From the NCBI GenBank assembly GCA_049325515.1, contig JBMOLI010000006.1, positions 29,328 to 93,327 of the forward strand: a stretch of DNA of 64,000 nt. Direction: 5' to 3'. Positions 11,723 through 53,979 of the stretch are shown here, in pieces (positions within the stretch are counted from its first letter, which is position 1; the number at the start of each line of letters is the position of its first letter). The position numbers and the translations under genes are program-made. The notes under the pieces are model-generated. The model did not search any database, had not been told where the DNA came from, and saw only the letters and a program-made list of their open reading frames with translations. The DNA is from Actinomycetota bacterium (lineage in GTDB: Bacteria; Actinomycetota; Acidimicrobiia; Acidimicrobiales; VFJN01).

Positions 11723-12254
11723 GCCGAGCCGCCTCGCCTGCGCAGCATCTGCCGCCCTCTCGGTGATGCTGCTCGTAGCCGCTTGCAGCGGCGGCGCTAC
11801 GTCATCCGGACCGACGACGGCCGTTCCGCTGGATGGCACGCCGAGGTATCCCGATGCTGAAGGGATCGTGGTCGACATCGCGGACGACTTCTCCACCATC
11901 ACCCTCGACGGCGACCGGACCTTCGAGATCAACGAGGACGTGCAGAGCTTCTCGACGGTCGACGGCTCGGTTCAGCAGCTGCTCCGCCGCAAGGGTCAGT
12001 ACGTGCAGGTCGGTCTGAAGGAAGGCTACGTCCGCTGGATAGCGGGGATCGCCGCAGTGGTCCGTGCTCCCGGCCAGCCGCCCGTCGTGTACTACTCGGG
12101 CAACCTCGTCGAGGTGCGCGGCGAGCACGCAGTGTTCGAGGACGGGACCGTGCTGACGCTCTCCGAGGAGCTCGATGCTCCTCCTACCGGTGCCCGGTAC
12201 ACCGCAACCATCAGCGCAGACGAGCACGTCGTGATCTCGCTCTCGCGGGCCTGA
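11715..12254 (+). CDS. Putative lipoprotein
   Basis: Overlaps upstream stop; lipobox VAAC; beta-rich body. Confidence 0.65.
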   Translation: MAEPSRLACAASAALSVMLLVAACSGGATSSGPTTAVPLDGTPRYPDAEGIVVDIADDFSTITLDGDRTFEINEDVQSFSTVDGSVQQLLRRKGQYVQVGLKEGYVRWIAGIAAVVRAPGQPPVVYYSGNLVEVRGEHAVFEDGTVLTLSEELDAPPTGARYTATISADEHVVISLSRA

Positions 12255-12673
12255 TGCCTCTCTGGGGGCGAACAGTGCTCAGGTCGGTCGTCGCTGGCCT
12301 GGTTACGTTCGGCGCGGTGTACCTCGGCGTCACCAGCATGCGCGGTGATCCAAAGGTCAGCACCGCTGAAGCCGATGAAGACGCCCTCGGCGTGGCCGAT
12401 GCGATCGCGATGGACCGAGGCTCGAGGGTCGCGGTGCGTGGGTTCGTGTTCATCGACGCGAACGTCGGGGAGCTGCTCTGCTCGGCTCGCCGCAACGACG
12501 ACCCCCCGACGTGTGACGGGGTTGCCCTGACCCTCATCAACCTCGACACGAACCGTCTCGACCTCGATGTGCCTGACGACACCGAGGGCAGCTACGACGC
12601 CTGGAGCCGCGACATCGTGACCCTGATCGGGCGAGCCGACCGAACGACGTTCGTGGTCGACGACATCCTCTAG
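12254..12673 (+). CDS. Membrane-anchored small protein, possibly OB-fold
   Basis: TGATG coupling; N-terminal TM; VAVRGFVF...LC...PPTC pattern. Confidence 0.65.
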   Translation: MPLWGRTVLRSVVAGLVTFGAVYLGVTSMRGDPKVSTAEADEDALGVADAIAMDRGSRVAVRGFVFIDANVGELLCSARRNDDPPTCDGVALTLINLDTNRLDLDVPDDTEGSYDAWSRDIVTLIGRADRTTFVVDDIL

Positions 12674-12736
12674 CAACCAACGTCTGTGAACCCCCGCGTC
12701 CGCATGTCGGCCGCCCGGGTTCACAGACGTTGGTTG
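12674..12736. repeat. 63-bp palindromic extragenic element, family A copy 1
   Basis: CAACCAACGTCTGTGAAC-N27-GTTCACAGACGTTGGTTG, directly after a TAG stop. Confidence 0.95.
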
Positions 12737-12817
12737 GTGGACTGGTGGCTGGCGAGATGGGCGGCCAGACTGACGCCCACGCCAGACAGGACCAGAACCC
12801 ATCGAGGAGGGGCTCGC

Positions 12818-14017
12818 ATGCCCGAAGCCGTCATCGTCTCGACCGCCCGCACGCCGATCGGCCGGGCCAACAAGGGCAGCCTCACCGAGTGCCGGCCCGA
12901 TGACCTTGCGGGGTTCATCATCAAGGACGTCCTCGCCAAGACGCCGCAGCTCGACCCCCAGCAGGTCGAAGACGTGATCCTCGGGTGCGGCCAACCCGGT
13001 GGTGAGGCTGGCTACAACGTGGGTCGGGTGGCAGCGCTGCTCGCCGGCCTGCCCGATGTCCCGGGCGTCACCGTCAACCGCTACTGCTCGTCGTCGCTCC
13101 AGACGATCCGCATGGCCGCACACGCCATCAAGGCCGGCGAGGGCGATGTCTTCGTGGCCGCGGGGGTCGAGACGGTCAGCCGCTACATGCACGGCGCTTC
13201 GGACACCGGACCGCACAACCCGCTGTTCGCTGACGCTGAGGCCCGCACGAGCGAGCGCACGGGCGGCGCCGACAGCTGGGAGCCCCCGGCAGGGCTGCCC
13301 GACATCTACATCGCGATGGGCCAGACGGCCGAGAACGTCGTGCTGGCGGAGAACGTCTCGCGCGAGGAGATGGACGAGTGGGGTGCCCGCTCGCAGCAGC
13401 GTGCGGTGGCAGCGCAGGAGCGCGGCTTCTTCGAGCGCGAGATCACGCCTGTGACGCTGTCGGACGGCACCGTCGTGTCCAAGGACGACGGGCCTCGTGC
13501 CGGCACCACGGTCGAGAAGCTGGCCGAGCTGAAGCCGGTCTTCCGCCCAGACGGCAAGGTCACTGCCGGCAACGCATGCCCGCTGAACGATGGCGCCGCC
13601 GCTGTCGTCGTGATGAGCGACACCAAGGCGGCTGAGCTGGGCATCACGCCCCTCGCTCGCATCGTGTCGTCGGGTGTGACGGGCCTCAACCCGGAGATCA
13701 TGGGGATGGGCCCGGTCGAGGCATGCCGCATGGCGCTGAAGCGTGCCGGCCTCACGATCGACGACATCGACCTCGTGGAGATCAACGAGGCGTTCGCGGC
13801 GCAGGTCCTGCCGTCGATGAAGCACCTCGGCATCGACCCTGAGAAGCTCAACGTGAACGGTGGAGCCATCGCGCTGGGCCACCCCTTCGGCATGACCGGT
13901 GCGCGCATCATGACCACCTTGATCAACGGCCTTCAGGACTCCGGCGGTCGCTACGGCCTCGAGTCGATGTGCGTCGGTGGTGGCCAGGGCATGGCCATGG
14001 TGATCGAGCGCCTCTGA
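12818..14017 (+). CDS. Acetyl-CoA C-acyltransferase (thiolase)
   Basis: RBS GAGGAGG; NRYCSSS, NEAFA, GHPFGMTG, CVGGGQG. Confidence 0.95.
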   Translation: MPEAVIVSTARTPIGRANKGSLTECRPDDLAGFIIKDVLAKTPQLDPQQVEDVILGCGQPGGEAGYNVGRVAALLAGLPDVPGVTVNRYCSSSLQTIRMAAHAIKAGEGDVFVAAGVETVSRYMHGASDTGPHNPLFADAEARTSERTGGADSWEPPAGLPDIYIAMGQTAENVVLAENVSREEMDEWGARSQQRAVAAQERGFFEREITPVTLSDGTVVSKDDGPRAGTTVEKLAELKPVFRPDGKVTAGNACPLNDGAAAVVVMSDTKAAELGITPLARIVSSGVTGLNPEIMGMGPVEACRMALKRAGLTIDDIDLVEINEAFAAQVLPSMKHLGIDPEKLNVNGGAIALGHPFGMTGARIMTTLINGLQDSGGRYGLESMCVGGGQGMAMVIERL

Positions 14018-14042
14018 CATCGACGTGACGCCACCCAGTCGC

Positions 14043-16349
14043 TCAATCGGGCGGCTGGGTGGTCGTAGTCGTGGTGGTGGTCGTCGTCGACGACGACGAT
14101 GTCGTGGTCGGCTTCCCACCGCCTTTGCCTGTGGTGATGGTGGTCTGCAGCGGGCCGCTCGTCGTCGTCGGCCCGCGAACGACGATCGACGTCTCCGCGC
14201 CGTATCTCGACCCCGCCCCGCTGTCGCAGCGGGCGATGACGCGGTAGGAGCCGGGAGCCAGGTCCGCAGGGATCACCAGTGTGGCTGTCCGCTCATCTGC
14301 GGTGGAGCCGGTGTCGGGAGGGCTGGCCACCGGCGTGCCGTCCAGTACCACCCACCACGACGCACGGCAGAAGCTGAAACCCACACCGCGCACCGTGATG
14401 GTGGCGCCGGGGTCGACCTCGCTGGGCTCTGCTGTCAGCGTGGCCGGCTGGTCCTCCTCGAGGAGCTCGGCCGGCGGGGCCGGGAAGTCCACCGCCTCCC
14501 GATCACGGAGCGCCTCGGCCATGAACTTGGCCCATATCTGGGCCGGGAACGATCCGCCTGTCACGGCGCGACCCTGCACGTCATCCATCGGAGTGGAGGC
14601 CTCGGGGTGACCCATCCAGACCACCGCTGCGTAGCCAGGTACGTAGCCCGCGAACCAGGCGTCCACGTTGTCCTGGGTGGTGCCCGTCTTGCCGGCTGCG
14701 GGCCGGCCGATCTCGGCGCCGCGCCCTGTGCCGCTCTCGATGACACCGCGCAGGGCGTGGGTGACCGCCCTTGCCACGTCGGGCTCGATCGCCTCAGCCT
14801 CTGGCTCGCGTCGGTCTGGCTCCCAGATGACCCGCCCGTCGCCGTCCTCGATGCGCGCGATGGCATACGGCTCGAGCCTGGTGCCGTCATCCGCCAGCGT
14901 CAGGTAGGCGCTCGCCAGGTCGAGCGGTGACACCTCCTCCACGCCGAGCGCGATCGATGCGACCGGTTCGAGCTCGGCATCGATCCCCATGGCCTCGGCG
15001 GCAGCTGCGACAGCGTCGGGCCCGACCTTCTCCAGCAGCTGCGCGTAGACCGTGTTCACCGACCGGGCGGTCGCCTCGGCCAACGTGAGGTCGCCGTAGC
15101 CTTCGCCCCCGTAGTTGCTCACCTTCCAGGTCTCGCCGCCGAGCTCGAGCTCGATCCGGGGCGGGGCGGCGAACCGCTCACCCAGCTTGATGCCATCCTC
15201 TAGGGCGGCTTCGAGCACGAAGGGCTTGAAGGCCGAGCCCGGCTGGCGCCCAGAGCCCCCGCCGTCCTGCCCCCGAGCCAGGTCAACCTGGAGCTCCTCG
15301 AAGTCGCGCCCGCCGACGTGCGCCCTGATGGCCCCGTCCATGTCGAGCGCTACGAGTGCCGCTTGCGGGCCGGCAGGATCCGTGAGGACCTCGGCGACGG
15401 CCGCCTCGGCGGCCGCCTGGGCGTCGAGGTCGAGCGTCGTCACGACGCGCAGGCCCTTGCCGTAGACGGCGTCCTCGCCCACCGCATGGATCGTCTGCTC
15501 GCGGATCCACTCGACGAAGTGCGGCGCCAGGCCAGCCGTCAGGGTGATGGGTCGAGTGCGCGGGGTGGCGACGATCGGCTTCGAGCGCGCTGCCTCGGCC
15601 TCGGCCTGGCTGATCTCGCCGACCTCGACGAGGTCGTCCAACACGGTCGAGCGGCGGCGCTCGGCCTCCTTCATGTCCTCAGCTGGGTCCGCCGCCTCGG
15701 GCGACTTCAGCAGGCCGACCAGCAGCGCCGCCTGGCCCAGGTCGAGATCCTTGGCGCTCGAGTCGAAGTACGAGCGCGCGGCGGCCTCGATGCCGTAGGC
15801 GCCCCTTCCGAAGTACACCGTGTTGAGGTAGCGCTCGAGGATCTCGTCCTTGTCGGCGGTGCGCTCGAGCTTCACGGACAGCACGGCCTCGCGAGCCTTG
15901 CGCCACAGCGACCGCTCACCGTTGAGGTACTCGTTCTTGACGAGCTGCTGCGTCAGCGTCGAGCCGCCTTGCACGTCATCGCTCGTCAGATTGACCCAGA
16001 GCGCCCGCGAGACGCCGACAGGGTCGACGCCGTCATGGTCGAAGAAGCGGCGATCCTCGGCGGCTATCAGCGCGTCGACCACGACCGGTGCGACCTCGTC
16101 CAGCGACACCTCGAAGCGCTGCCCGTCCTGAGACAGGACGGCCAGCTCGCGGCCCTTGGCGTCGACCACCAGGGCTGAGCGGATCTTCGGTGGGTCCGCG
16201 GGGAGCTCGACCGCCTGCCACAGCACCGCCAGCCCCGCGACTCCGAGGGCACCGAGACCTCCAAGGGCAAGAGCCGGCCATCGGACCCAACGCGGCAGCC
16301 CGCGCCAGCGATGGCGCGCGCGCCTCAACAGCTCCGATGGACGTGCCAC
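14043..16349 (-). CDS. Class A penicillin-binding protein (transglycosylase/transpeptidase) with C-terminal Ig-like domain and Thr-rich tail
   Basis: EDRRFFDHDG, GGSTLTQQLVKN, KDEILERYLN; SAFK, SVN and KTG motifs. Confidence 0.95.
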   Translation of the reverse strand: MARPSELLRRARHRWRGLPRWVRWPALALGGLGALGVAGLAVLWQAVELPADPPKIRSALVVDAKGRELAVLSQDGQRFEVSLDEVAPVVVDALIAAEDRRFFDHDGVDPVGVSRALWVNLTSDDVQGGSTLTQQLVKNEYLNGERSLWRKAREAVLSVKLERTADKDEILERYLNTVYFGRGAYGIEAAARSYFDSSAKDLDLGQAALLVGLLKSPEAADPAEDMKEAERRRSTVLDDLVEVGEISQAEAEAARSKPIVATPRTRPITLTAGLAPHFVEWIREQTIHAVGEDAVYGKGLRVVTTLDLDAQAAAEAAVAEVLTDPAGPQAALVALDMDGAIRAHVGGRDFEELQVDLARGQDGGGSGRQPGSAFKPFVLEAALEDGIKLGERFAAPPRIELELGGETWKVSNYGGEGYGDLTLAEATARSVNTVYAQLLEKVGPDAVAAAAEAMGIDAELEPVASIALGVEEVSPLDLASAYLTLADDGTRLEPYAIARIEDGDGRVIWEPDRREPEAEAIEPDVARAVTHALRGVIESGTGRGAEIGRPAAGKTGTTQDNVDAWFAGYVPGYAAVVWMGHPEASTPMDDVQGRAVTGGSFPAQIWAKFMAEALRDREAVDFPAPPAELLEEDQPATLTAEPSEVDPGATITVRGVGFSFCRASWWVVLDGTPVASPPDTGSTADERTATLVIPADLAPGSYRVIARCDSGAGSRYGAETSIVVRGPTTTSGPLQTTITTGKGGGKPTTTSSSSTTTTTTTTTTQPPD

Positions 16350-16482
16350 GCTTCGTGACCTACCCAGGAACAGCGGCTGACAGACTCTCGGCGCGGGTTG
16401 AAGCGCGGCCCTAGCGGCGCTTGCCGCGTGTCGGACAGTGGTGGTGACGCCGGGGTGGGTGGTGCAGGCTACCCGGGCCTGC

Positions 16483-17397
16483 TCAGGCGGTGCCGTAGAC
16501 GGGAGCCGGCGCGGGAGCGTCAGCGAGCAGGCGGTCGATGACCGGGCCGAGCTCGTCTGCGTCCCAACGGTCGCCCTTGTCAGCAGTGGGGCCGTGCTGC
16601 CACCCCGTGGCGAGCCCCACCTTGCCGCCCTCGACCTCGAACACGCGGCCGCTCACGTGCGCCGAGGCGCTCGACGCGAGCCAGGCGACCAGCGGCGACA
16701 CGTTCTCCGGCGCCATCGCGTCGAAGGCGTCGGGCTCGTCGGGCGTCGCCATCATCTCGGTGAAGACGCCCTCGGTCATGCGGGTGCGAGCGGCGGGGCA
16801 GAGCGCGTTGGCGGTCACCCCGTAGCGGCCCAGCTCGACAGCTTGGACGAGGGTGAGCGTGGCGATGCCTGCCTTGGCAGCCGAGTAGGCGGCTTGCCCG
16901 ACCGAGCCGAGGATGCCGGCGCCCGAGCTCGTGTTGATGATTCGAGCGTCAACTGGCTGACCCGCCTTCGCAAGATCGCGCCAGTGGGCCGCGGCATGCC
17001 TGGCTACCGCGAAGTGACCCTTGAGGTGCACGCGCACCACCGCGTCCCACTCATCTTCGGCGATGTTGGCGAACATGCGGTCGCGCACGAACCCAGCGTT
17101 GTTGACCACGACGTCTAGACCGCCCAGCTCGTCGAGCGCCGCCCGCACCATGCGTGCGGCTCCATCGAAGTCGGCCACGTCGTCACCGTTGGCGATGGCC
17201 TCACCTCCGGCGGCTCGGATCTCGGCCACCACCTCGCCGGCCGGACCGCTGCCACCACCGGTGCCGTCGAGCTCGCAGCCCAGATCGTTGACGACGACGC
17301 GCGCTCCCTGGCGAGCCAGCTCGAGCGCGTGTGCGCGACCGAGCCCGCGGCCCGCGCCTGTGACGAGCACCCTTCGTCCCTCGCAGATGCGACCCAT
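16483..17397 (-). CDS. SDR oxidoreductase, Rv3548c-like (HIP/steroid catabolism)
   Basis: TGAGRGLG, YSAAK; VRDRMFAN, FDAMAPENVSPLV and C-terminal PVYG closely resemble Rv3548c; start taken at ATG 17397. Confidence 0.88.
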   Translation of the reverse strand: MGRICEGRRVLVTGAGRGLGRAHALELARQGARVVVNDLGCELDGTGGGSGPAGEVVAEIRAAGGEAIANGDDVADFDGAARMVRAALDELGGLDVVVNNAGFVRDRMFANIAEDEWDAVVRVHLKGHFAVARHAAAHWRDLAKAGQPVDARIINTSSGAGILGSVGQAAYSAAKAGIATLTLVQAVELGRYGVTANALCPAARTRMTEGVFTEMMATPDEPDAFDAMAPENVSPLVAWLASSASAHVSGRVFEVEGGKVGLATGWQHGPTADKGDRWDADELGPVIDRLLADAPAPAPVYGTA

Positions 17398-17416
17398 GGC
17401 GGGCAGTCTGTCAGGA

Positions 17417-17433
17417 TCTGACGGCTCGTCAGA
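17417..17433. promoter_or_regulatory. Palindromic operator candidate TCTGACGGCTCGTCAGA
   Basis: CTGAC-N5-GTCAG, 20 bp upstream of the SDR start; same motif at 25913, 35251 and 38831. Confidence 0.75.
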
Positions 17434-17439
17434 CACCAC

Positions 17440-17495
17440 CAACCAACGTCTGTGAACCCCCATGGCCGGCATGCGGACGTACGGGTTCACAGACG
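17440..17495. repeat. Family A palindromic element copy 2 (right arm shortened)
   Basis: CAACCAACGTCTGTGAAC-N27-GTTCACAGACG. Confidence 0.93.
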
Positions 17496-17507
17496 CCAGG
17501 AGCGACC

Positions 17508-18368
17508 GTGCGATACGGGATCACGATGTTCGCAACCGACCTCAGCTGCGATGTGGTCGAGCTGGCGCGCGAAGCCGAGGCGCGCGGCCTGGAGTCGCTT
17601 TGGCTGCCGGAGCACACGCACATACCGGTGAGCCGGCGCACCCCTCCGCCCACGGGGGACGCGGAGCTGGCCGAGGAGTACAGGCGCTGCCTCGACCCGC
17701 TCGTGGCGCTGGCCGCCGCGGCTTCGGTGACGACGAGCCTGCGACTCGGCACGGGCATCCTGCTGGCGGCGCAGCGTGACCCGATCGTCACCGCCAAGGC
17801 CGTCGCGACGCTCGATCACCTGAGCGGAGGGCGGGCCGCCCTCGGGGTGGGCTTCGGGTGGAACGAGGACGAGATCGCGCAGCACGGCGTTGCGATGGCC
17901 GACCGGCGTGACGTGGCGCGCGAGCACCTGCTCGCCATGCAGGCGCTGTGGGCCGAGGACGAAGCGTCGTTCGTCGGGCGCCACGTCCAGCTCGCCCCGT
18001 CCTGGTCCTGGCCGAAGCCCACCCAGCGCTCGGTGGACGGTCGCCCTGCTGTTCCCGTGCTGCACGGCGGGGCGGCCGGGCCCAAGCTCTTCTCCCACAT
18101 CGCCGAGTACGGCGACGGCTGGATCCCGATCGGCGGGGCCGGGCTGACTGATGCGATACCCAGGTTGCGTGAGGTCGTGGCGGAGGCGGGCCGCGACCCC
18201 TCGACCCTCGAGATCATCCCGTTCGGGTCGCTGCCCGACCCAGGCAAGCTCGACCACTTCGACCAGATCGGGGTGACCGAGTGCGTCTTCCGCCTGCCGA
18301 GCGCACCTCGCGACGTCGTGCTGCCGCTGCTGGACGAGCAGGCCGCGCTGGTGGCGTCGCGCCGCTGA
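17508..18368 (+). CDS. LLM-class, probably F420-dependent oxidoreductase
   Basis: WLPEHTHIP, DPLVALAAAA, ATLDHLSGGR, GFGWN, PKP. Confidence 0.9.
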   Translation: MRYGITMFATDLSCDVVELAREAEARGLESLWLPEHTHIPVSRRTPPPTGDAELAEEYRRCLDPLVALAAAASVTTSLRLGTGILLAAQRDPIVTAKAVATLDHLSGGRAALGVGFGWNEDEIAQHGVAMADRRDVAREHLLAMQALWAEDEASFVGRHVQLAPSWSWPKPTQRSVDGRPAVPVLHGGAAGPKLFSHIAEYGDGWIPIGGAGLTDAIPRLREVVAEAGRDPSTLEIIPFGSLPDPGKLDHFDQIGVTECVFRLPSAPRDVVLPLLDEQAALVASRR

Positions 18369-18381
18369 GGACGAGCGCAAC

Positions 18382-18444
18382 CAACCAACGTCTGTGAACC
18401 GCCACGGCCGCCATGCGGACGCAGGTGTTCACAGACGTTGTTTG
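18382..18444. repeat. Family A palindromic element copy 3
   Basis: CAACCAACGTCTGTGAAC-N27-GTTCACAGACGTTGTTTG between convergent genes. Confidence 0.95.
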
Positions 18445-18455
18445 GTGGGGCGCCT

Positions 18456-19427
18456 CTAGGGCACCAGCACGACCTTGCCGGCGATCTTGCGCGACTGCAG
18501 GTCGGTGAGCACGCTGACGACGTCGTCCAGCGGGTGCTCGGTCGGTTCCACCGGGGAGATCTCGCTCGAGCCGGCCAGGCTCACAAGCTCGGCCATCAGC
18601 TCCTGGTTGCCAGCGGGATCTCTCATGGTCCATGCGCCCCAGTCGATGCCCACCACCGTGCGGTTGCTCAGCAGGATCTGGTTGGCCGGGAGCGCCGGGA
18701 TCCCTCCGCCCGCGAAGCCGATCACGATGAAGCGACCCATCCAACCGAGCGCTCGCAGTGCCGGCTCGGCGAAGCGGTCACCGACGGGATCGACTACCAC
18801 GTCCACACCGCCGCCTGCGATCTCGCGGGCTCGGGTCTTCAGATCCTCTGTCTCATAGCTGATGGTGGCTTCGGCGCCCGCCGCGACCGCAGCCGCCAGC
18901 TTGTCGTCTGACGACGCCGCGGCGATGACGCGCGCGCCGAGGTGGCGTGCGAGGTCGACCGCCGCCAGGCCGATTCCGCCCCCCGCGCCGAGCACGAGCA
19001 CCCACTCGCCGGCACGGACCTGCGTGCGGCGGGTCATGGCGAAGAGCATGGTTCCGTAGCTCTGCACCAGTGCCGCGGCCTGCCCGTAGCTCAACGTGCC
19101 GGGAATGGGGATCACCGCGCTGGCTGCCAGCTCCACGTGCGACGCGAAGCCCCCGAGCCAGGGCATGGCCAGCACCCGATCGCCGACCGCGAGGCTCGTG
19201 ACGCCGTCGCCGACCGCGACGACGTCGCCGGCCACCTCTCCGCCCGGCGTGAACGGCAGGGGCGGCTTGATCTGGTACTTGCCCTGCACGAACAGCCCGT
19301 CGACGAAGTTCACGCCGGCGGCCTTGACCGCAACGACGACGCGACCCGGTCCGGGCTCTGGGTCAGGCCTCTCTTCGATCACGAGGCGGTCGATGGGGGC
19401 GAACTCGTGGCAGACGACAGCGCGCAT
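18456..19427 (-). CDS. NADPH:quinone oxidoreductase (MDR family)
   Basis: GVNFVD, PFTPGGEVAG, LGAGGGIG, GKVVL. Confidence 0.92.
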   Translation of the reverse strand: MRAVVCHEFAPIDRLVIEERPDPEPGPGRVVVAVKAAGVNFVDGLFVQGKYQIKPPLPFTPGGEVAGDVVAVGDGVTSLAVGDRVLAMPWLGGFASHVELAASAVIPIPGTLSYGQAAALVQSYGTMLFAMTRRTQVRAGEWVLVLGAGGGIGLAAVDLARHLGARVIAAASSDDKLAAAVAAGAEATISYETEDLKTRAREIAGGGVDVVVDPVGDRFAEPALRALGWMGRFIVIGFAGGGIPALPANQILLSNRTVVGIDWGAWTMRDPAGNQELMAELVSLAGSSEISPVEPTEHPLDDVVSVLTDLQSRKIAGKVVLVP

Positions 19428-19464
19428 CCCGGGAGCATGGCACGCCTGCGCGAGGCTGCGTGTC

Positions 19465-20277
19465 GTGCCCATCGTCCGCGTCGAAGACCTCGATGATCCG
19501 CGTCTGGCGGACTACGCGCACCTGCGGGCACCGTCGCGGCGCATGGCGCTCGAGCGCGAGCGCGGCATCTTCACGGTGGAGGGTCGGCTGTCGATCGAGG
19601 CGCTGCTCGAATCGCCGTACGAGGTGCGGTCGTTGTTCGTTGCCGAGGAGCACGTCGCTCGCGTTGCCTCGCTCGTGCACACCGAGGCTCCGATCTTCAC
19701 GATGTCAGCCGCTCAGATGGCGGAGGTCACGGGCGTGCACTTCCACCGCGGAGTGCTGGCCGTGGCCGAGCGGCCACAGCTCCCGCCGGTGGCCGACCTC
19801 CTGCGTGACGCGAAGGTGGTCGTCGTGCTCGAGGCGGTCAACGACCACGAGAACATCGGGGCGCTGTTCCGCAACGCAGCCGCCTTTGGAGTCGACGCCG
19901 TCGTGCTGGATCCCACCGCCACGGATCCGCTCTACAGGCGCTCGACACGAGTGTCACTCGGACACGTGCTGCGCGTTCCGTTCGCACGGGTCGACGAAGG
20001 CGAGTGGCCCGCGGCTCTCGGCGGAATGCGCGACCAAGGCTTCACGACGGTGGCGCTCACCCCATCACACGACGCCGAGACGCTGGGAGCGCTGCTCGCA
20101 GATCGTCCGGACCGGGTGGCCCTCGTTCTTGGAGCGGAGGGCCCCGGGCTCAGCACGGCGGCCCTCGATGCGACCGACCGCCGGGTGCGGATCCCCATGG
20201 CGCCCGGCGTCGACTCCGTCAACGTCGCGACTGCCGCAGCGATCGTCCTCTCTGCCCTTTACAACCAACATCTGTGA
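19465..20277 (+). CDS. TrmH/SpoU family RNA methyltransferase
   Basis: ENIGALFRNAAAFG, LGAEGPGL, IPMAPGVDSVNVA; stop TGA lies inside family A copy 4. Confidence 0.92.
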   Translation: MPIVRVEDLDDPRLADYAHLRAPSRRMALERERGIFTVEGRLSIEALLESPYEVRSLFVAEEHVARVASLVHTEAPIFTMSAAQMAEVTGVHFHRGVLAVAERPQLPPVADLLRDAKVVVVLEAVNDHENIGALFRNAAAFGVDAVVLDPTATDPLYRRSTRVSLGHVLRVPFARVDEGEWPAALGGMRDQGFTTVALTPSHDAETLGALLADRPDRVALVLGAEGPGLSTAALDATDRRVRIPMAPGVDSVNVATAAAIVLSALYNQHL

Positions 20278-20324
20278 ACCCCCATGGCCGCATACCGGCC
20301 AACCGAGTTCACAGACCTTGGTTG
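20262..20324. repeat. Family A palindromic element copy 4; overlaps the 3' ends of both convergent genes
   Basis: CAACCAACATCTGTGAAC-N27-GTTCACAGACCTTGGTTG. Confidence 0.93.
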
Positions 20325-21547
20325 GTGAGGGCTTCGATGCGCTGCTCGAGGAAGCGGCGCTCCGGGTCGCTCGGTCGGCAGGCCAGCGCCTTCTCGTATG
20401 CCGTGACCGCCTCGGCGCGGCGGTCGAGGCGGCGCAGCAGATCGGCCCGAGCGGCATGCCATAGGTGGAACCCGTCGAGACTGCTGATGGCGTCGACGGC
20501 GGCCAACCCGTCAGCAGGGCCGTCGCGCTCTGCCAGCGCCACTGCACGGTTCAGAGCCACGACTGGCGTTGGCAGCACCTTCGCCAACAGGTCGTAGAGG
20601 GCCACGAGCTCGTCCCAATCGGTCGCGTCCCACGTCGGTGCCTCAGCGTGAACAGCAGCGATCGCGGCCTGGAGCGCGTAGGGGCCTGGCGCGCCAGCGG
20701 CGCGCCGGAGGGCGACCTCGAGCAGCGTGATCCCGTCGTCGATCTGCGTGTGATCCCAAGCGGAGCGGTCTTGGTCTGCCAGAAGGATGAGATCCCCGGA
20801 TGCGTCGACGCGCGTCGACCGGCGAGCATCGCTGAGCAGCAGCAGAGAGAGCAGGCCGAGCACCTCGGTCTCGTCGGGCAGCACCTCGGCGAGGAGCCGA
20901 GCGAGTCTCAGCGCCTCGCTGCAGAGATCGAATCGCACGAGAGAGCCGCCGGCGCTTGCGGTGTGCCCCTCGGTGAAGATGAGGTAGACGACCGCCAGCA
21001 CAGCGGGAAGGCGTTCGGGCAGCTCGTGATCGGCTGGCACCCGATAGGGGATGTTGGCGCCTGCGATCTTGCGCTTGGCCCTGACCAAGCGCTGCGCCAT
21101 CGTCGCTTCCGGCACGAGGAAGGAGCGGGCGATCTCGGCGGTGGTGAGCCCGCCGAGCGTTCGCAGGCTGAGAGCGATCCGCGCCTCGGGCGCCAGTGCT
21201 GGATGGCAGCACGTGAAGATCAACCGCAGCAGATCGTCACGCACGGCAGAGTCGGGCACTGGATCGTCGTTCGAGCCCTCGAGCATCCGCATGGCCCGCT
21301 CCTCCTTGTCGCCGCGCCGCTGCTCCCGCCTGAGGCGATCGAGCGCCTTGTTGCGGGCGGCGGTCGTGAGCCAGGCGGCCGGCTTGGCCGGCATGCCGTG
21401 GCGCGGCCAGTGCTCGAGCGCCGCGAGAGCCGCCTCTTGCACCGCATCCTCGGCCAGGTCGAGGTCGCCGAGGATCCGGGCGAGGGTGGCGACGACGCGC
21501 CCTCCCTCGATCCGGATGACCTCGGCGAGCTCGTCCGAGTCGACCAA
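20309..21547 (-). CDS. ECF sigma factor, ECF42 type (C-terminal TPR/DUF6596 extension)
   Basis: [53 protein letters not shown]; adjacent DGPF gene; start approximate (TTG). Confidence 0.9.
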
Positions 21548-25931: not shown

Positions 25932-25936
25932 TGGTC

Positions 25937-25999
25937 CCCTGTCGTTCTCGGGCGATCTCTCCGTTGCCCAGGCGGAATCTTCGCCCGAGAACGACAGGG
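25937..25999. repeat. Palindromic element family B copy 1
   Basis: CCCTGTCGTTCTCGGGCGA-N25-TCGCCCGAGAACGACAGGG; related copy at 53903. Confidence 0.85.
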
Positions 26000-30740: not shown

Positions 30741-31889
30741 CTAGAGGCGTTCGATGATGGTGACGTTGGCCTGGCCGCCGCCCTCGCACATGGTCTGAAG
30801 GCCGTAGCGGCCGCCGGTGCGCTCCAGCTCGTGCAGCAGGGTCGTCATGAGTCGTGCTCCCGTGGCGCCGAGCGGGTGGCCGAGGGCGATGGCGCCGCCG
30901 TTCACGTTCACCTTGGCGAGGTCGACGTCGAGCTCCTTCTGCCAAGCGAGCACAACGGAGGCGAACGCCTCGTTGATCTCCACCAGGTCGATGTCGTCCA
31001 TCGTCATGCCTGTCTTCTCGAAGGCGTAGCGCGTGGCCGGGATCGGAGCGGTGAGCATGTATATCGGGTCGTCGGCCCGCACGCTCATGTGGTGGATGCG
31101 TGCGCGCGGCGTGAGGCCGTGGTCGCGGAGCGCTTGCTCGCTGACGACGAGCAGCGCTGACGACGCGTCGGAGATCTGCGACGCCACGGCTGCGGTCACC
31201 CGGCCGCCCTCGACCAGGGTGGGCAGCGATCGGATCTTCTCCCAGTTCGGCTCGCGTGGGCCCTCGTCGACGGCAGCGTCGCCGAGAGGCACGATCTCGT
31301 GCTCGAAGCGCCCTTCGGCGCGCGCCCGCAGCGCGCGCTCGTGGCTCTCGACGGCGAACTCCTCCATCTGCTCGCGGCTGATGTCCCACTTGGTGGCGAT
31401 CATCTCGGCGCTGTTGAACTGGCTCACCTCGCCGGCGCCGTAGCGCTTCACCCAACCCTCGGAGCCGGTGAACGGGTCGGTGAAGCCGAGCGGCTCGGCC
31501 AGCGTCATGGCGGAGCTGATGGGGATCATCGACATCTGCTGCACACCGCCGGTCACCACGACGTCGTTGACGCCGGCCATCACGGCTTGAGCCGCGAAGT
31601 GGATGGCCTGCTGCGCCGAGCCGCACTGCCGGTCGACCGTGGTACCGGGCACGTGCTCAGGGAGGCCCGCCGCCAGCCAGCAGGTGCGGGCGATGTCGCC
31701 CGCCTGCCCGCCAACCGTGTCGACGCAGCCGAAGATCACGTCGTCGACGGCGGCCGGGTCGATGCCGGTGCGGTCGATGAGAGCACTGATCGAGTGGGCG
31801 CCCAGGTCGGCCGGGTGGACCTGGCTCAGACCTCCGCCGCGGCGCCCGACCGGCGTGCGCACTGCGTCGACGATGAATGCCTCAGGCAT
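30741..31889 (-). CDS. fadA6: Thiolase, FadA6-like (HIP catabolism)
   Basis: DRQCGSAQQA, IPISSAM, SQFNSAEMIA.KW, CEGGGQAN; resembles Rv3556c; cluster context. Confidence 0.85.
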   Translation of the reverse strand: MPEAFIVDAVRTPVGRRGGGLSQVHPADLGAHSISALIDRTGIDPAAVDDVIFGCVDTVGGQAGDIARTCWLAAGLPEHVPGTTVDRQCGSAQQAIHFAAQAVMAGVNDVVVTGGVQQMSMIPISSAMTLAEPLGFTDPFTGSEGWVKRYGAGEVSQFNSAEMIATKWDISREQMEEFAVESHERALRARAEGRFEHEIVPLGDAAVDEGPREPNWEKIRSLPTLVEGGRVTAAVASQISDASSALLVVSEQALRDHGLTPRARIHHMSVRADDPIYMLTAPIPATRYAFEKTGMTMDDIDLVEINEAFASVVLAWQKELDVDLAKVNVNGGAIALGHPLGATGARLMTTLLHELERTGGRYGLQTMCEGGGQANVTIIERL

Positions 31890-34137: not shown

Positions 34138-34192
34138 CAACCAGCGTCTGTGAACCCCTACGTCCGCATGGCGGCCGTGGCGGTTCACAGAC
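34138..34192. repeat. Family A palindromic element copy 5; contains the ipdC stop codon
   Basis: CAACCAGCGTCTGTGAAC-N27-GTTCACAGAC. Confidence 0.92.
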
Positions 34193-35258
34193 CGAGGCCC
34201 TTCAGAGCAGCAGCGGCTTCGCTCTCGATGCGAGAAAGGAGGTCGGCCACCGTCGGCAGGTCGTCGACCACTCCCGTCACCTGACCGGTGGGCAGGATCC
34301 CGACCTCGGGCTTGCCGTCGACCATCGTCGCCTTGATGAGCATCGGAGCGTTGGCGGCGAGGGCGACCTGGCTCCAAGTGAGATCTTGGTTGCGCTTCAT
34401 GGCGAGGCCCTCACGCAGCAGATCGGCGAGCGACGTGCCGGTCTCCCTGCGGAAGCGCAGCGCAGCGGCGGCCGCGCGGGGGAAGCGAAGGAGCTTCGGT
34501 GAGCGCTCGATGCGCTCGACGACATCAGTGCGGATGACGCGCTGAGGCGCGCCGTCGATCGCGGTGGTGACGACCGTGTCGAAGACGGTCGCCGCCGTGT
34601 AGCGATCCTTCACTCGGTCGGGCACCCGGCTCTCGGCCGTGAGGAGGAAGCGGGTGCCCATCGCGATGCCGTCGGCCCCATAGGCGAGAGCAGCGACGAG
34701 ACCTCGGCCGTCGTGGAAGCCGCCGGCGCCCAGCACCGGGATCGTGGCGCCCACGGCGTCCACGACCTGTGGCAGCAGCAGAGAGGTGGGCACCGAGCCG
34801 GTGTGGCCACCGCCCTCCGCTCCCTGCGCGATCACGGCGTCGACGCCCATGTCGAGCACCTTCTCGGCGTGCCTGCGCGCCCCCACGGTCGGCATCACCA
34901 CCACCCCAGCGTCGTGGCAGCGGGCCACCGCGGCTGCGGTGGGCGCCCCCGCGAAGGACACGAGTCGCACGCCTTCCGATACGACGAATGCCACGAGCTC
35001 GTCGAGGCCTGGTTGATCCGCACGGAAGTTGACGCCAAAGGGCGCATCGGTGCGTTCGCGCACCGACCGGACTGCGCCCCGCAGCTGCTCGGGTGTCATG
35101 GTCACAGCGGCGAGGATCCCGAAGCCGCCGGCAGCGCTCGTCGCCGCCGTCAGGCTGGCGCCCGACACCCATCCCATCCCGGTCTGCACGATGGGCAGCC
35201 GGCACCCCACCAGATCGCAGAACCTCGTCTGGAGCACGGGGTGGACAGAACCTGACAC
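34185..35258 (-). CDS. ipdC: Nitronate-monooxygenase-family enoyl-CoA reductase, IpdC-like
   Basis: PIVQTGMGWV, GAEGGGHTG, MGTRFLLT, TWSQV...ANAPML; resembles Rv3553. Confidence 0.85.
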   Translation of the reverse strand: MSGSVHPVLQTRFCDLVGCRLPIVQTGMGWVSGASLTAATSAAGGFGILAAVTMTPEQLRGAVRSVRERTDAPFGVNFRADQPGLDELVAFVVSEGVRLVSFAGAPTAAAVARCHDAGVVVMPTVGARRHAEKVLDMGVDAVIAQGAEGGGHTGSVPTSLLLPQVVDAVGATIPVLGAGGFHDGRGLVAALAYGADGIAMGTRFLLTAESRVPDRVKDRYTAATVFDTVVTTAIDGAPQRVIRTDVVERIERSPKLLRFPRAAAAALRFRRETGTSLADLLREGLAMKRNQDLTWSQVALAANAPMLIKATMVDGKPEVGILPTGQVTGVVDDLPTVADLLSRIESEAAAALKGLGL

Positions 35259-44850: not shown

Positions 44851-45294
44851 ATGTCCACCACTGCGGTGCCGGCCGTCGAGGGCTGGTTCACCACCGATGC
44901 CGAACCGAGGCTGCTCGGCACCCGCTGCACGTCTTGCGGCACGGTGTTCTTCCCGAAGGCGAGCGGCTTCTGCCGCAACCCCGAGTGCCGGGGACGTTCA
45001 TTCGAAGACGTCGAGCTGTCCCGTGTCGGCAAGGTGTGGAGCTACACCGATGCCCAGTACCAGCCGCCGCCGCCGTACATCCCGCCCGCAGACACCCACG
45101 AGCCGTTCGCCATCGCGGCGGTCGAGCTGGCCGAGGAGCAGGTCGTGATCCTCGGCCAGGTGGCCAAGGGGTTCGGAGTGGACGACCTGCGAGTCGGGGC
45201 AGAGGTGGAGCTGGTCGTGGAACCGCTCTACGAGGTCGACGGCGTGGACCACCTCATCTACAGATGGAAGCCGGTCGCCGGGAGCGGGTCATGA
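44851..45294 (+). CDS. Zn-ribbon OB-fold (DUF35) protein, Rv1628c-like
   Basis: CTSC..FFP...CRNPEC, GKVWSYT; ATGA-coupled to Ltp. Confidence 0.9.
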   Translation: MSTTAVPAVEGWFTTDAEPRLLGTRCTSCGTVFFPKASGFCRNPECRGRSFEDVELSRVGKVWSYTDAQYQPPPPYIPPADTHEPFAIAAVELAEEQVVILGQVAKGFGVDDLRVGAEVELVVEPLYEVDGVDHLIYRWKPVAGSGS

Positions 45295-46490
45295 GCGCGC
45301 CAGAGTCAGTCGCCGTCCTCGGGGTCGGCATGCACGAGTGGGGCAAGTGGGGCCGGCCATTCCATGAGTACGGCATCGACGCGGCGCTTGCCGCCCTCGA
45401 CGACGCCGGCATCGACTGGGCCGATGTGCAGTTCGTCGCCGGCGGCGAGACGGTCCGCAACGGCTACCCGGGCTACGTCGCCGCCGCCACGATCACGCAG
45501 GCACTGGGCTGGAACGGTGCCCGGGTTGCCACCTGCTACGCCGCGTGCGCCTCGGGCGTGACCGCTCTCGACGCGGCACGAGCGCGGATCCTCGCCGGTC
45601 TGTGCGACGTCGCTCTCGTGGTTGGGGCAGACACCACGCCCAAGGGCTTCCTCGCGCCGGTCGCGGGCGAGCGCTGGGACGATCCCGACTGGCTGCGGTT
45701 CCGCCTGCTCGGTGCCACCAACCCCACCTACTTCGCGCTGTACGCCCGCCGCCGCGTCGACCTCTACGGTGCCACCGACGCCGACTTCGCCAAGGTGAAG
45801 GTGAAGAACGCGCGCCACGGGCTTCACAACCCCAACGCGAGGTACCGCAAGGAGGTGACCGTCGACGAGGTGCTCGCCTCGCCGATGGTGGCCGACCCGC
45901 TACGCCTGCTCGAGATCTGCGCCACCTCCGACGGTGCGGCCGCGGTCGTGCTCACGTCGATGGACTACGCCCGCAAGCGCGCCGGAGTCGCCTCACCCGT
46001 GCGCATCCGGGCCGTCTCGACCGTCACGCCGCGCTTCCCGAACACGGTGATCGAGATGCCCAACTTCTCGACCGACTCGGCTGCCGCGCTGGCGCCACCC
46101 GAGCTCACCTTCCGCGACTCGATCGCTGCCGGCGCCTACGAGGAGGCCGGCATCGGCCCCGACGAGCTCAGCCTGGCCGAGGTCTACGACCTGTCGACCG
46201 CTCTCGAGCTCGACTGGTACGAGAACATCGGCCTCTGCAAGCCGGGCGAAGCCGAGAAGCTGCTCAACGACGGCGACACGACGATCGGTGGGCGCATCCC
46301 CGTCAACCCGAGCGGCGGGCTCGCCTGCTTCGGCGAGGCGGTTCCCGCGCAGGCGATCGCCCAGGTCTGCGAGGTCACGTGGCAGCTGCGCGGCCAGGCC
46401 GCCGGCCGCCAGGTCGAGGGTGCCAGCGCCGGGCTCACGGTCAACCAGGGCCTCTTCGGCCACGGCAGCGCCGTCCTGCTGACGAGCTGA
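45291..46490 (+). CDS. Thiolase-like lipid-transfer protein (SCP2-thiolase), Rv1627c-like
   Basis: GMHEWGKWG, RNGYPG, ICATSDGAAA, EVYDLS, NPSGGL. Confidence 0.9.
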   Translation: MSAPESVAVLGVGMHEWGKWGRPFHEYGIDAALAALDDAGIDWADVQFVAGGETVRNGYPGYVAAATITQALGWNGARVATCYAACASGVTALDAARARILAGLCDVALVVGADTTPKGFLAPVAGERWDDPDWLRFRLLGATNPTYFALYARRRVDLYGATDADFAKVKVKNARHGLHNPNARYRKEVTVDEVLASPMVADPLRLLEICATSDGAAAVVLTSMDYARKRAGVASPVRIRAVSTVTPRFPNTVIEMPNFSTDSAAALAPPELTFRDSIAAGAYEEAGIGPDELSLAEVYDLSTALELDWYENIGLCKPGEAEKLLNDGDTTIGGRIPVNPSGGLACFGEAVPAQAIAQVCEVTWQLRGQAAGRQVEGASAGLTVNQGLFGHGSAVLLTS

Positions 46491-46494
46491 CCAA

Positions 46495-46556
46495 CAACCA
46501 ACGTCTGTGAACCCCGGCGGCCGCATGGCGGACGCGGCGGTTCACAGACGTGGTGG
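46495..46556. repeat. Family A palindromic element copy 6
   Basis: CAACCAACGTCTGTGAAC-N27-GTTCACAGACGTGGTGG. Confidence 0.93.
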
Positions 46557-46565
46557 ACTTGGGCC

Positions 46566-46949
46566 ATGACCGTGAACTTGAACCACACGATCGTGCACGC
46601 CCGCGACGCCGAGGCGTCGGCGGCCTTCCTGTCCGAGATGCTGGGCCTGGCAGCGCCGCGCCGCTTCGGTCCGTTCGTGATCGTCGACGTCGACAACGGA
46701 GTGTCGCTCGACTTCATGACGACGGGCCCGGAGTGGGACATCACGATCGAGCACTACGCGTTCCTGGTCAGCGAGCCCGAGTTCGACGAGATCTTCGGGC
46801 GCATCGAGGAGCGAGGTCTGCCGTACTGGGCCGACCCGCACGGCAACGAGCCCGGCGAGATCAACCATCACGACGGCGGCCGGGGCGTCTACTGGCACGA
46901 CCCGGACGGCCACATGCTCGAGATCATCACCGTTCCCTACGGCGGCTGA
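46566..46949 (+). CDS. VOC/glyoxalase family protein
   Basis: LNHTIV, HYAFLVSE, GGRGVYW.DPDGH.LE. Confidence 0.92.
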   Translation: MTVNLNHTIVHARDAEASAAFLSEMLGLAAPRRFGPFVIVDVDNGVSLDFMTTGPEWDITIEHYAFLVSEPEFDEIFGRIEERGLPYWADPHGNEPGEINHHDGGRGVYWHDPDGHMLEIITVPYGG

Positions 46950-46957
46950 CCCACCAA

Positions 46958-47012
46958 CAACCAACGTCTGTGAACCCTGACGGCCGCATGGCGGACATGG
47001 GGGTTCACAGAC
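46958..47012. repeat. Family A palindromic element copy 7
   Basis: CAACCAACGTCTGTGAAC-N27-GTTCACAGAC. Confidence 0.93.
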
Positions 47013-52575: not shown

Positions 52576-52638
52576 CAACCAACGTCTGTGAACCCTGGCG
52601 GCCGCATGGCGGACGTGGCGGTTCACAGACGTTGGTTG
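52576..52638. repeat. Family A palindromic element copy 8
   Basis: CAACCAACGTCTGTGAAC-N27-GTTCACAGACGTTGGTTG, directly abutting the MaoC TAG. Confidence 0.95.
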
Positions 52639-53103
52639 CTAGGCGAGCCAGCGGCTGAGCGACTCGATCACGCAGGCAGGCTTGGGGTTCCCCTCGACCT
52701 CGATGGTGATGACGATCGTGCTCTGCACGCCGCCGGAGATCTCCTCGACGGAGGCGATCTCCGCTCCGGCTCGCACGCGGCTGCCGACTGGCACCGGTGC
52801 GGGGAAGCGCACCTTGCCGGTGCCGTAGTTGACGCCCGCGGAGGCTCCGGGCACCTGGAGCAGCTGCGGCAGGAAGTAGTTGGACAGCGCGAGTGTGAGG
52901 TAGCCGTGGGCGATCGGGCCGCCGAACGGGCTCTCAGCGGCGGCCCGCTCCACGTCGACGTGGATCCACTGGTGGTCGCCGGTGGCGTCGGCGAACAGGT
53001 TGACGCGGTCCTGGGTGATCTCGATCCAGTCGGTCCAGCCGAGGTGAGCTCCGGCTGCGGCGCGCAGGTCGTCGATCGACTCGTAGGTGGTCGGCGCAGT
53101 CAT
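52639..53103 (-). CDS. MaoC-family (R)-enoyl-CoA hydratase
   Basis: FADATGDHQWIHVD, IAHGYLTL, NYG..KVRFPAPV. Confidence 0.92.
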   Translation of the reverse strand: MTAPTTYESIDDLRAAAGAHLGWTDWIEITQDRVNLFADATGDHQWIHVDVERAAAESPFGGPIAHGYLTLALSNYFLPQLLQVPGASAGVNYGTGKVRFPAPVPVGSRVRAGAEIASVEEISGGVQSTIVITIEVEGNPKPACVIESLSRWLA

Positions 53104-53902: not shown

Positions 53903-53953
53903 CGTTCTCGGGCGATCCTGCCGTCCAGGAGACGGAGGAATCGCCCGAGAACG
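53903..53953. repeat. Palindromic element family B copy 2
   Basis: CGTTCTCGGGCGA-N25-TCGCCCGAGAACG between ipdE1 and ipdF. Confidence 0.85.
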
Positions 53954-53979
53954 GCTGTGGAGTGGCGCGGGGGTCGAGG

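Follow-up and report, generated by a model that had tools for sequence, protein, structure and literature searches.

Palindromic hairpin repeats that adjoin, and in part supply, the stop codons of genes in a genome of the Acidimicrobiia

We examined a 64-kb stretch of DNA (hereafter the window; C6:29328-93327 of the genome coded G000) from a member of the Acidimicrobiia and found eight copies of a palindromic repeat which, across the genome, sits mostly at or over the stop codons of genes. The repeat unit is a palindrome of 61-75 nt with a fixed 45-nt core, TCTGTG-N33-CACAGA. The source genome comprises 3.90 Mb in 41 contigs, has 69% GC and is 99% complete, and the nearest records to the SpoU methylase gene of the window were metagenome-assembled genomes (MAGs) of Microthrixaceae and Acidimicrobiales. 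Our interpretation, held with moderate confidence, is that these elements form a lineage-specific family of palindromic hairpin repeats that ends genes, similar in kind to orphan repetitive extragenic palindromes (REPs) and to the TRIT repeats of mycobacteria, and that the hairpin may act on the mRNA. The general feature of the family is a hairpin base that abuts a stop codon; the TGA within the arm is a lineage-specific by-product that genes came to use. A preliminary description of the window had read the arms as stop-codon cassettes, placed at or in lieu of the stops of intact genes.

The arm 15-mer AACCAACGTCTGTGA, allowing up to three mismatches, occurs 12 times in the window (shuffle mean 0.86; none of 100 shuffles reached 12), and these matches group into the eight copies. 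Genome-wide, exact 9-nt core arms mark 92 copies, and the span from TCTGTG to CACAGA is exactly 45 nt in 91 of them. A profile search of G000 with nhmmer returned 115 loci, of which 103 were analysed, the remaining 12 being weak matches, located at contig ends or N-containing. The starts of contigs C5, C18, C38 and C39 and the end of C40 fall inside elements, and a run of N in C5 separates two half copies. As the repeat interrupts the assembly in this way, the true copy number is probably above 115. By column counts, the core (TCTGTGAAC / GTTCACAGA) is invariant and the outer arm (CAACCAACG and its complement) is moderately conserved; a 5-nt stretch on each side is variable, and the apical stem is GC-rich with a 3-nt loop. 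By the same counts, the most conserved bases are internal to the element, not terminal. The interior is laid out as stem, internal loop, apical stem and 3-nt loop, and the species-specific outer arms lengthen the stem to ~30 bp.

To locate the elements relative to genes, we used the calls of a purpose-written codon-bias caller (3573 genes, 91% of G000 coding). Ninety-six of the 103 elements lie outside the bodies of called open reading frames (ORFs): 37 between convergent genes, 48 between tandem genes, 10 between two gene starts, seven inside a called ORF and one at a contig edge make up the full set. Together they adjoin 123 gene 3' ends. The stop codon is the arm TGA at 43 of these ends; at 21 it lies in the outer arm (model positions 8-13), at 31 it falls 1-7 nt before the palindrome (model positions 1-7), at 23 in the next 14 nt upstream (model -13 to 0), and at only five farther away. 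Hence, besides the 43 at the arm TGA, 75 ends stop within ~28 nt upstream of the core, and 80 of the 123 ends use their own stop. The preliminary description had named a lack of enrichment at stop codons, relative to intergenic space, as the observation that would speak against it. We found the reverse: a stop lies within 7 nt of 75 of the 96 intergenic elements (78%), compared with 5.9% of random intergenic insertion points, and at or inside the palindrome of 51 of the 96, compared with 0.8% of random insertion points in element-free intergenic DNA.

Between tandem genes, the element was closer to the upstream stop than to the downstream start in 45 of 48 cases (p = 1.3e-10), with median distances from the core of 9 nt to the stop and 33 nt to the start. 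Convergent spacers have a median length of 25 nt without an element and 50 nt with one, which is barely above the 45-nt core. As element-bearing spacers measure only ~50 nt, the arms overlap coding sequence more than plain insertion into a spacer would give. One caveat is that selection alone pushes survivors towards stops, given that start-proximal spacer is needed for ribosome binding and promoters. The arms face a gene start on 68 sides, and stop-to-core distances vary widely, with no fixed target or duplication.

How the arm TGA is used can be read from the proteome. At least one stop is supplied by 38 of the 103 elements, and both stops by five. The preliminary description had proposed a count of proteins with C-termini of the form NQ[RHG]L; there are 15 among the 3560 predicted proteins, and all 15 lie at elements. 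Forty-seven coding sequences end in TCTGTGA, 42 of them at recognised elements. Only one frame of the consensus arm contains a stop; reading in either of the others stays open across the entire element. Fusions of coding sequence into the core nevertheless comprise 43 in the TGA frame and at most seven read-throughs, whereas a 2:1 ratio in the opposite direction would be expected. Among those read-throughs, two have clear element-encoded tails of ~27 residues. The 80 ends that use their own stop show no such preference, with 25 in the arm-TGA frame, as expected by chance. Since core fusions are nearly all in the TGA frame while own-stop ends sit at chance, the arm TGA acts as a filter and therefore decides which fusions survive. 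Separately, four elements of G000 (C4:404211, C6:149541, C6:190761 and C13:375495) lie in a frame that continues open in both directions, and codon usage looks coding-like on either flank; each represents either a gene pair fused through the element or an in-frame insertion of ~25 residues.

Copy 4 of the window (20262..20324, core 20271-20315), a 63-nt palindrome, illustrates the arrangement and, as described before, ends both of two convergent genes. Its left arm reads AAC CAA CAT CTG TGA, and the TGA at 20275-20277 is the stop of a SpoU/TrmH-type methylase gene (19465-20277) with the tail ...YNQHL*. Read on the minus strand, its right arm is AAC CAA GGT CTG TGA, and the TCA at 20309-20311 is the stop of a gene for a DUF6596 ECF sigma factor (20309-21547, minus strand) with the tail ...TNQGL*. 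Comparison with orthologues lacking the element, likewise proposed earlier, showed that native C-termini were replaced or trimmed, mostly with little change in length, and that the genes stayed intact. TrmH relatives without the element end in ...SALYGLG*, GIC*, GLDV* or GIG* (269-270 aa), compared with ...SALYNQHL* (270 aa) in the window, and relatives of the ECF sigma factor end in ...EVTVPT*, ...DLA* or ...EVTRT*, compared with ...EALTNQGL*. In one relative, the convergent stops of this junction are just 2 nt apart. Relative to their orthologues, arm-terminated proteins differ in length by 0 or +1 residue (TrmH), +1 to +4 (ECF sigma), 0 (C12_123932_L and C13_15275_R), +4 (C25_76130_L), -4 (C13_13114_R), -9 (C13_11693_L), -17 (C25_76130_R) and -10 to -40 (C13_9435_R). 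The same TrmH/ECF sigma gap in a Microthrixaceae MAG (L002:3308-3400) holds a palindrome with arms TCTCTGG.../...CCAGAGA, which resembles a family member that differs by a single core base and would escape the pattern searches used.

The comparisons also indicate how elements and genes come together. At C13:15275, the sister species G024 has a native TGA, 18 nt of outer arm and then the core, and a 25-nt deletion would yield the exact fusion seen in G000. At C13:19343, the arm begins within a former TAG. Copy 3, C13:1853 and C13:6983 have the neighbouring stops outside the palindrome; these native stops are kept, and the corresponding empty sites measure 5-17 nt, or ~44 nt for C13:6983 in G024. 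Both routes, insertion beside a stop and fusion of a coding end to the arm, thus occur, as orthologue comparisons show each. Elements persist almost solely at gene 3' boundaries, the one permissive place in a 91%-coding genome, and insertion into the last codons, or a later deletion of a short spacer, joins coding sequence to an arm. In this species and its close kin, one frame of the arm reads ...CTG TGA, such that fusions end at once with the tail N-Q-R-L or R/G-L. The other two frames would add at least 20 residues, and such fusions were almost never seen. Given that TGA-frame fusions end at once, the arm does work as a spare stop, though as an exploited accident of the arm variant rather than the purpose of the family.

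If the arm were a true stop-codon cassette, aimed at stops or built to replace them for harmless insertion, its TGA would be selected and defining. Several observations fit this idea: the stops supplied by 38 elements, the arm TGA at exactly the native stop position in three of nine orthologue comparisons (TrmH, C12_123932_L and C13_15275_R), the arm that starts within the former TAG at C13:19343, and 68 of 123 gene ends in the TGA frame where 41 are expected. However, relatives of G000 argue otherwise. The exact AAC-type core was found in eight of 41 relatives searched, all of the same genus. Of 29 congeners, 23 have 9-107 copies of the looser pattern TCTGTG-N33-CACAGA and one more (G003) has a single copy, while genomes of other genera of the family have 0-3; a reversed-pattern control gave 0 throughout, and the unpublished genome G004 is among those tallied. 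In the congeners, interiors and outer arms are species-specific, the span from TCTGTG to CACAGA is always 45 nt and palindromic, and many arm types are stop-free in every frame, yet sit as tightly on stops. For two genomes with stop-free arms, the stop falls between model positions -13 and 14 at 30 of 33 (G008) and 33 of 34 (G005) adjacent gene ends, and never in the core. G001 combines an AAC arm with a different interior, and there the arm TGA serves as the stop of 10 of the 30 adjacent ends. Because stop-free arm types still adjoin stops, the TGA is not the conserved feature, and the suggestion that it is part of a conserved design fails.

The same idea must further accommodate 80 of 123 ends that keep their own stop, 10 elements between gene starts, the 68 arm sides that face a start, and stops at many distances from the core. 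Among 400 other Actinomycetota sampled (including five unpublished genomes with one or two matches each), multiple copies occurred only in G142 (10) and G484 (21), and single matches were at control level. Several copies in both genomes have the end of a long ORF at the core or immediately ahead of it, and an A follows TCTGTG, hence TGA. Although this recurrence in distant lineages favours a selected stop, about one quarter of arm types would have an A as their seventh core base by chance. In G142, a segment of 343 kb (G142:C1:381746-724414) holds nine of the 10 copies of this distant 2.3-Mb genome. Overall, we regard a cassette built around its stop codon as unlikely. What stands of the cassette claim is the use of the arm TGA by 43 of 123 ends, and what stands of the proposed insertion at stops is the replacement of C-termini; nothing shows aiming at stops rather than the survival and erosion of copies in a compact genome.

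Comparison of sites between species revealed turnover. Element-flanked gene ends for which a G000 orthologue could be identified number 49 in five other congeners, and the G000 counterpart has an element at 14 of them (29%). These 14 correspond to seven distinct G000 elements, and the background is 123 of 3560 (3.5%; binomial p = 7e-10, calculated on kin and repeated sites that are not independent). At shared sites, interior types are wholly different between species; the sites of copy 3 and of C13:19343, for example, carry the AAC type in G000 and the GGC type in G024. Ten G024 sites had both flanks syntenic with G000, where seven were occupied and three empty, an ascertainment that favours shared sites. 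Two of the three empty sites resemble decayed remnants and the third holds an unrelated hairpin. Three of eight junctions in C13:1-20000 were settled by synteny, and the element-rich interval C13:8.6-16.4 kb gave few two-flank matches. At the convergent junction C13:124813-125020 of G000, where G024 has an element of the family, we observed a different perfect hairpin together with a partial upstream copy of one arm. Unrelated hairpins seem to use gene-end junctions as slots, and copies of the family are gained, lost and replaced over time.

Alternatively, the repeats could be mobile DNA of the REP/REPIN type, moved by a dedicated transposase encoded in single copy. A RAYT or equivalent enzyme would recognise the TCTGTG/CACAGA base as single-stranded DNA, and the location at gene ends would reflect tolerance and no host function. 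This would account for copies that are alike within a genome and differ between species, for congener copy numbers from 0 to 107, for the patchy multi-copy occurrence in two of 400 other Actinomycetota, and for congeners that do well without copies. A mismatch favoured at one apical-stem position (51 heterotypic versus 31 homotypic halves, p = 0.045) and the lack of a G-U bias among stem mismatches (see below) would also fit. The enzymes, however, did not follow the elements. RAYT/Y1 proteins (PF01797) had no match in the 99%-complete G000 and were found in one of 13 genomes (G008 only) although 10 of the 13 carry elements, in a search whose control matched six of 14 known genomes. IS110 (PF01548) occurred in five of 13 genomes, none of them G000, and did not track the elements; TnpB (PF07282) was found in 0 of 13.

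A longer element with the same ends was likewise not found in G000, where essentially every occurrence of the core 10-mers (89 and 95) falls within the 92 elements. Genes between close element pairs are housekeeping only (HemC-like, Lgt-like, lysyl-tRNA synthetase and dUTPase) and include no mobility candidate, and no constant flanking duplication was detected at the 123 junctions or in comparisons of filled with empty sites. Moreover, the 29% of sites common to species points to more than random hopping. We therefore consider purely mobile DNA a rather doubtful explanation, if a slightly better one than a cassette. Miniature inverted-repeat transposable elements were ruled out as a class, as there is no full-length element sharing the ends, no target-site duplication, and the conserved bases are internal. 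With respect to REP/REPIN repeats, G000 has the many dispersed short extragenic palindromes and lacks the cognate RAYT.

A further possibility is that a dedicated factor other than RAYT, IS110 or TnpB homes to gene-end slots and overwrites the hairpins there. The hairpin base would purposely be laid over the stop, and folding gated by the ribosome would give translation-gated 3'-end processing or termination. Such a factor would explain why 29% of sites are common to species that have different sequence types. The idea arises because the UCUGUG/CACAGA base and the 45-nt geometry are kept while the rest is rewritten, and this geometry recurs in two distant actinobacterial lineages. We offer it as a speculation that is probably wrong.

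Copies have predicted RNA folds of -42 to -57 kcal/mol (z -7 to -13), in a 69% GC genome in which 100-nt windows fold to ~-40 kcal/mol regardless. Among very stable gene ends, the elements account for 38 of 136 at <=-55 kcal/mol and 14 of 36 at <=-60 kcal/mol, a sizeable part and not the bulk. In a covariation alignment of 103 copies from at least nine genomes, 80.5% of cells are paired, compared with 28-47% when partners are slid by 1-3 columns. Both sides change at 21 of 29 pairs, and compensatory cells number 502 versus 250 +/- 15 in shuffles, counts that are inflated by relatedness and by amplification of palindromic masters. Since compensatory changes exceed the shuffles despite this inflation, the alignment shows that palindromy is kept while sequence is replaced. 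A search of the whole window against Rfam gave no family at gathering threshold, and at E <=10 only generic microRNA-precursor-like hairpins.

Conceivably, the hairpin is irrelevant, and a dimeric protein of nucleoid or regulatory type binds the element as a site in double-stranded DNA through contacts with both invariant hexamers. Their invariance and fixed spacing in every species, the lack of a strand bias in mismatch type, and the lack of a significant orientation bias relative to transcription (29 versus 18, judged by the loop triplet) agree with such a site. Yet compensatory changes across species keep the 33-nt interior complementary, which contacts at the ends alone would not call for; the hexamers are 39 bp apart centre to centre, which is far for a simple dimer; and placement follows stops, not promoters. 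Together, these points make a protein-binding site highly improbable.

We thus return to a hairpin repeat that ends genes, for which the following function is conceivable. A hairpin of ~30 bp in the mRNA could mark or protect the 3' end, as an exonuclease barrier, a termination aid or an RNase III substrate. The stop either lies within the hairpin base or precedes it by 0-12 nt; hence, a ribosome that terminates there would have to melt the hairpin, which could couple translation to the fate of the 3' end or provoke stalling. The preliminary description had likewise suggested that the element may modulate termination or mRNA decay. RNase III and transfer-messenger RNA (tmRNA) are both encoded in G000, in which ARAGORN identified 51 tRNAs and one tmRNA. 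Selenocysteine recoding at UGA through a selenocysteine insertion sequence (SECIS) was ruled out, as ARAGORN found no tRNA-Sec in G000.

Several points weigh against this interpretation. Three congeners of 89-96% completeness (G017, G063 and G066) have no copy, their matching junctions being 5-17 nt long and hairpin-free. Any function would therefore be dispensable, given that three good congeners hold zero copies. In the 48 tandem-context copies, mismatches on the sense strand comprised 71 G-U and 62 A-C (p = 0.49), and since G-U is no commoner than A-C, a constraint at the RNA level is not favoured over one at the DNA level. None of four elements (window 12000-21000) matched the U-tract pattern of a canonical intrinsic terminator (>=5 T in 8), a class that we rejected; the tail after the core in G000 is CGTTGGTTG. 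That the hairpin forms in RNA, that transcripts end at it and that expression responds to it are predictions from sequence. Finally, the codon-bias calls give the exact stop position for each frame, while some genes, small genes or starts may be wrong.

The other seven copies of the window vary in completeness and context. Copy 1 (12674..12736, core 12683-12727) is a 63-nt palindrome whose left arm is abutted with zero gap by the TAG (12671-12673) of the plus-strand gene 12275-12673. Copy 8 (52576..52638, core 52585-52629) is abutted on its right arm, again with zero gap, by the stop of a minus-strand MaoC-like gene (CTA, 52639-52641). In both, a TAG directly adjoins CAACCAACG, in agreement with the preliminary description. 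Copy 2 (17440..17495, core 17449-17493) consists of left arm and core, without the right outer arm. It lies between two gene starts (16483-17370, minus strand, and 17508-18368, plus strand), had not been listed as stop-associated, and has its site occupied in G000, G024 and G001. Copy 3 (18382..18444) separates two convergent genes, one for a luciferase-like monooxygenase with its stop at 18366-18368 and the other for a zinc-type dehydrogenase with its stop at 18456-18458. The two genes keep their native stops; in G017 the site is empty, with a 17-nt spacer.

Copy 5 (34138..34191, core 34147-34191) comprises left arm and core, and its right-arm TCA at 34185-34187 is, as had been noted, the stop of a minus-strand gene (34185-35210). 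This gene was taken for ipdC and instead encodes a nitronate monooxygenase (PF03060). Copy 6 (46495..46550, core 46504-46548) follows a thiolase-like gene (45291-46490) whose stop is 13 nt before the core, and copy 7 (46958..47011, core 46967-47011) follows a glyoxalase-family gene (46566-46949) with its stop 17 nt before the core. For copies 3, 6 and 7, distances of 4-13 bp after stops had been given. This is roughly right: the nearest stops end ~0-8 nt ahead of the CAACCAACG arm and 13-22 nt ahead of the core TCTGTG.

Further repeats occur in the window. A second, unrelated palindromic pair of 59 nt (25935-25993 and 53903-53961; 76% complementary, arms GTTCTCGGGCGA...TCGCCCGAGAAC) may represent another hairpin-repeat family. 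Four to five tandem repeats with a 345-nt period (48728-50378) lie inside a 1542-aa ORF (47312-51940) and form a repeated protein domain, some 91-nt blocks being 88-100% identical. An inverted repeat of 268 nt (13748-14015 and 30743-31010; 74% complementary, 16.7 kb apart) probably corresponds to paralogous genes on opposite strands.

The orthologue comparisons show that, in a single genome, ~40 ordinary genes have had their final residues and stop codon rewritten by a hairpin repeat that is selfish or semi-domesticated. For annotation, this means that C-termini ending in NQRL or RL are element-derived. The family also represents a second, independent TRIT-like system outside Mycobacterium. 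Moreover, the species variants constitute a natural mutagenesis series, in which some arms contain an internal stop and others do not, and stems are either perfect or mismatched. This series could be used to probe the effect of hairpins on stops with regard to termination, RNase III processing and ribosome rescue.

TRIT is described in Mycobacterium as 147 palindromic, mostly bidirectional copies, placed narrowly at about -8 of the stop and largely within coding sequence (PMC3152330). It was found only in Mycobacterium in the database scans reported by its authors (Gardner et al. 2011, PMC3152330), is reported to overlap little with Term-seq ends (bioRxiv 10.1101/2022.06.01.494293) and has been proposed as an RNase III substrate (PMC13714241). 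Similar to TRIT as described there, the G000 family consists of a conserved palindromic hairpin in ~100 or more copies, narrowly at or over stops. Both comprise ~100-150 dispersed palindromic hairpins tied to gene termini, with no known mobilising enzyme and a debated function. Unlike TRIT, the family is hosted by the class Acidimicrobiia, its interior and outer arms vary between species round invariant hexamers, and a third of the neighbouring genes stop inside the stem; the likeness was drawn from the published description of TRIT.

REP ends are reported to supply stop codons (Di Nocera et al. 2013, PMC3733652), and a stop-supplying repeat is therefore a known phenomenon. Like REP/REPIN repeats, including those tagged with GTAG/CGTC, as described in that report, the elements are short GC-rich palindromes with many copies at gene ends. 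In contrast to them, the elements occur without a RAYT and form one long hairpin of 61-75 nt instead of a 20-40 nt REP or a REP doublet. Their stop is found 13 nt into the stem and not at the element's tip. Tagged REPs have a conserved GTAG or CGTC tetranucleotide at one end of a 20-40 bp stem-loop; in most G000 copies, CGTC spans the arm-core junction on both sides (C in 73 and G in 81 of 91 copies, T and C invariant), and congeners have GATC in its place. According to PMC12306157, which cites its reference 17, E. coli REPs located no more than 15 nt from a stop make ribosomes stall and reduce translation, and ~11% of predicted REPs are given as lying that close (PMC12306157), compared with ~78% of the G000 elements. 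Considering that the hairpin of most G000 elements starts within the footprint of a terminating ribosome and that tmRNA is encoded, stalling may occur in G000 by analogy. With an intrinsic terminator, the elements share a stable GC-rich stem-loop just 3' of genes, and a palindrome would serve both directions; they differ in having no U-tract and a stem far longer than usual. Our literature search, which did not cover all journals, returned nothing on palindromic, REP or MITE repeats in Acidimicrobiia or Microthrix. Judged by likeness to published descriptions, the closest analogues are the mycobacterial TRIT and those REPs whose ends supply stops. The kind of element is thus already known from other bacteria; this family is new and is set apart from TRIT by description.

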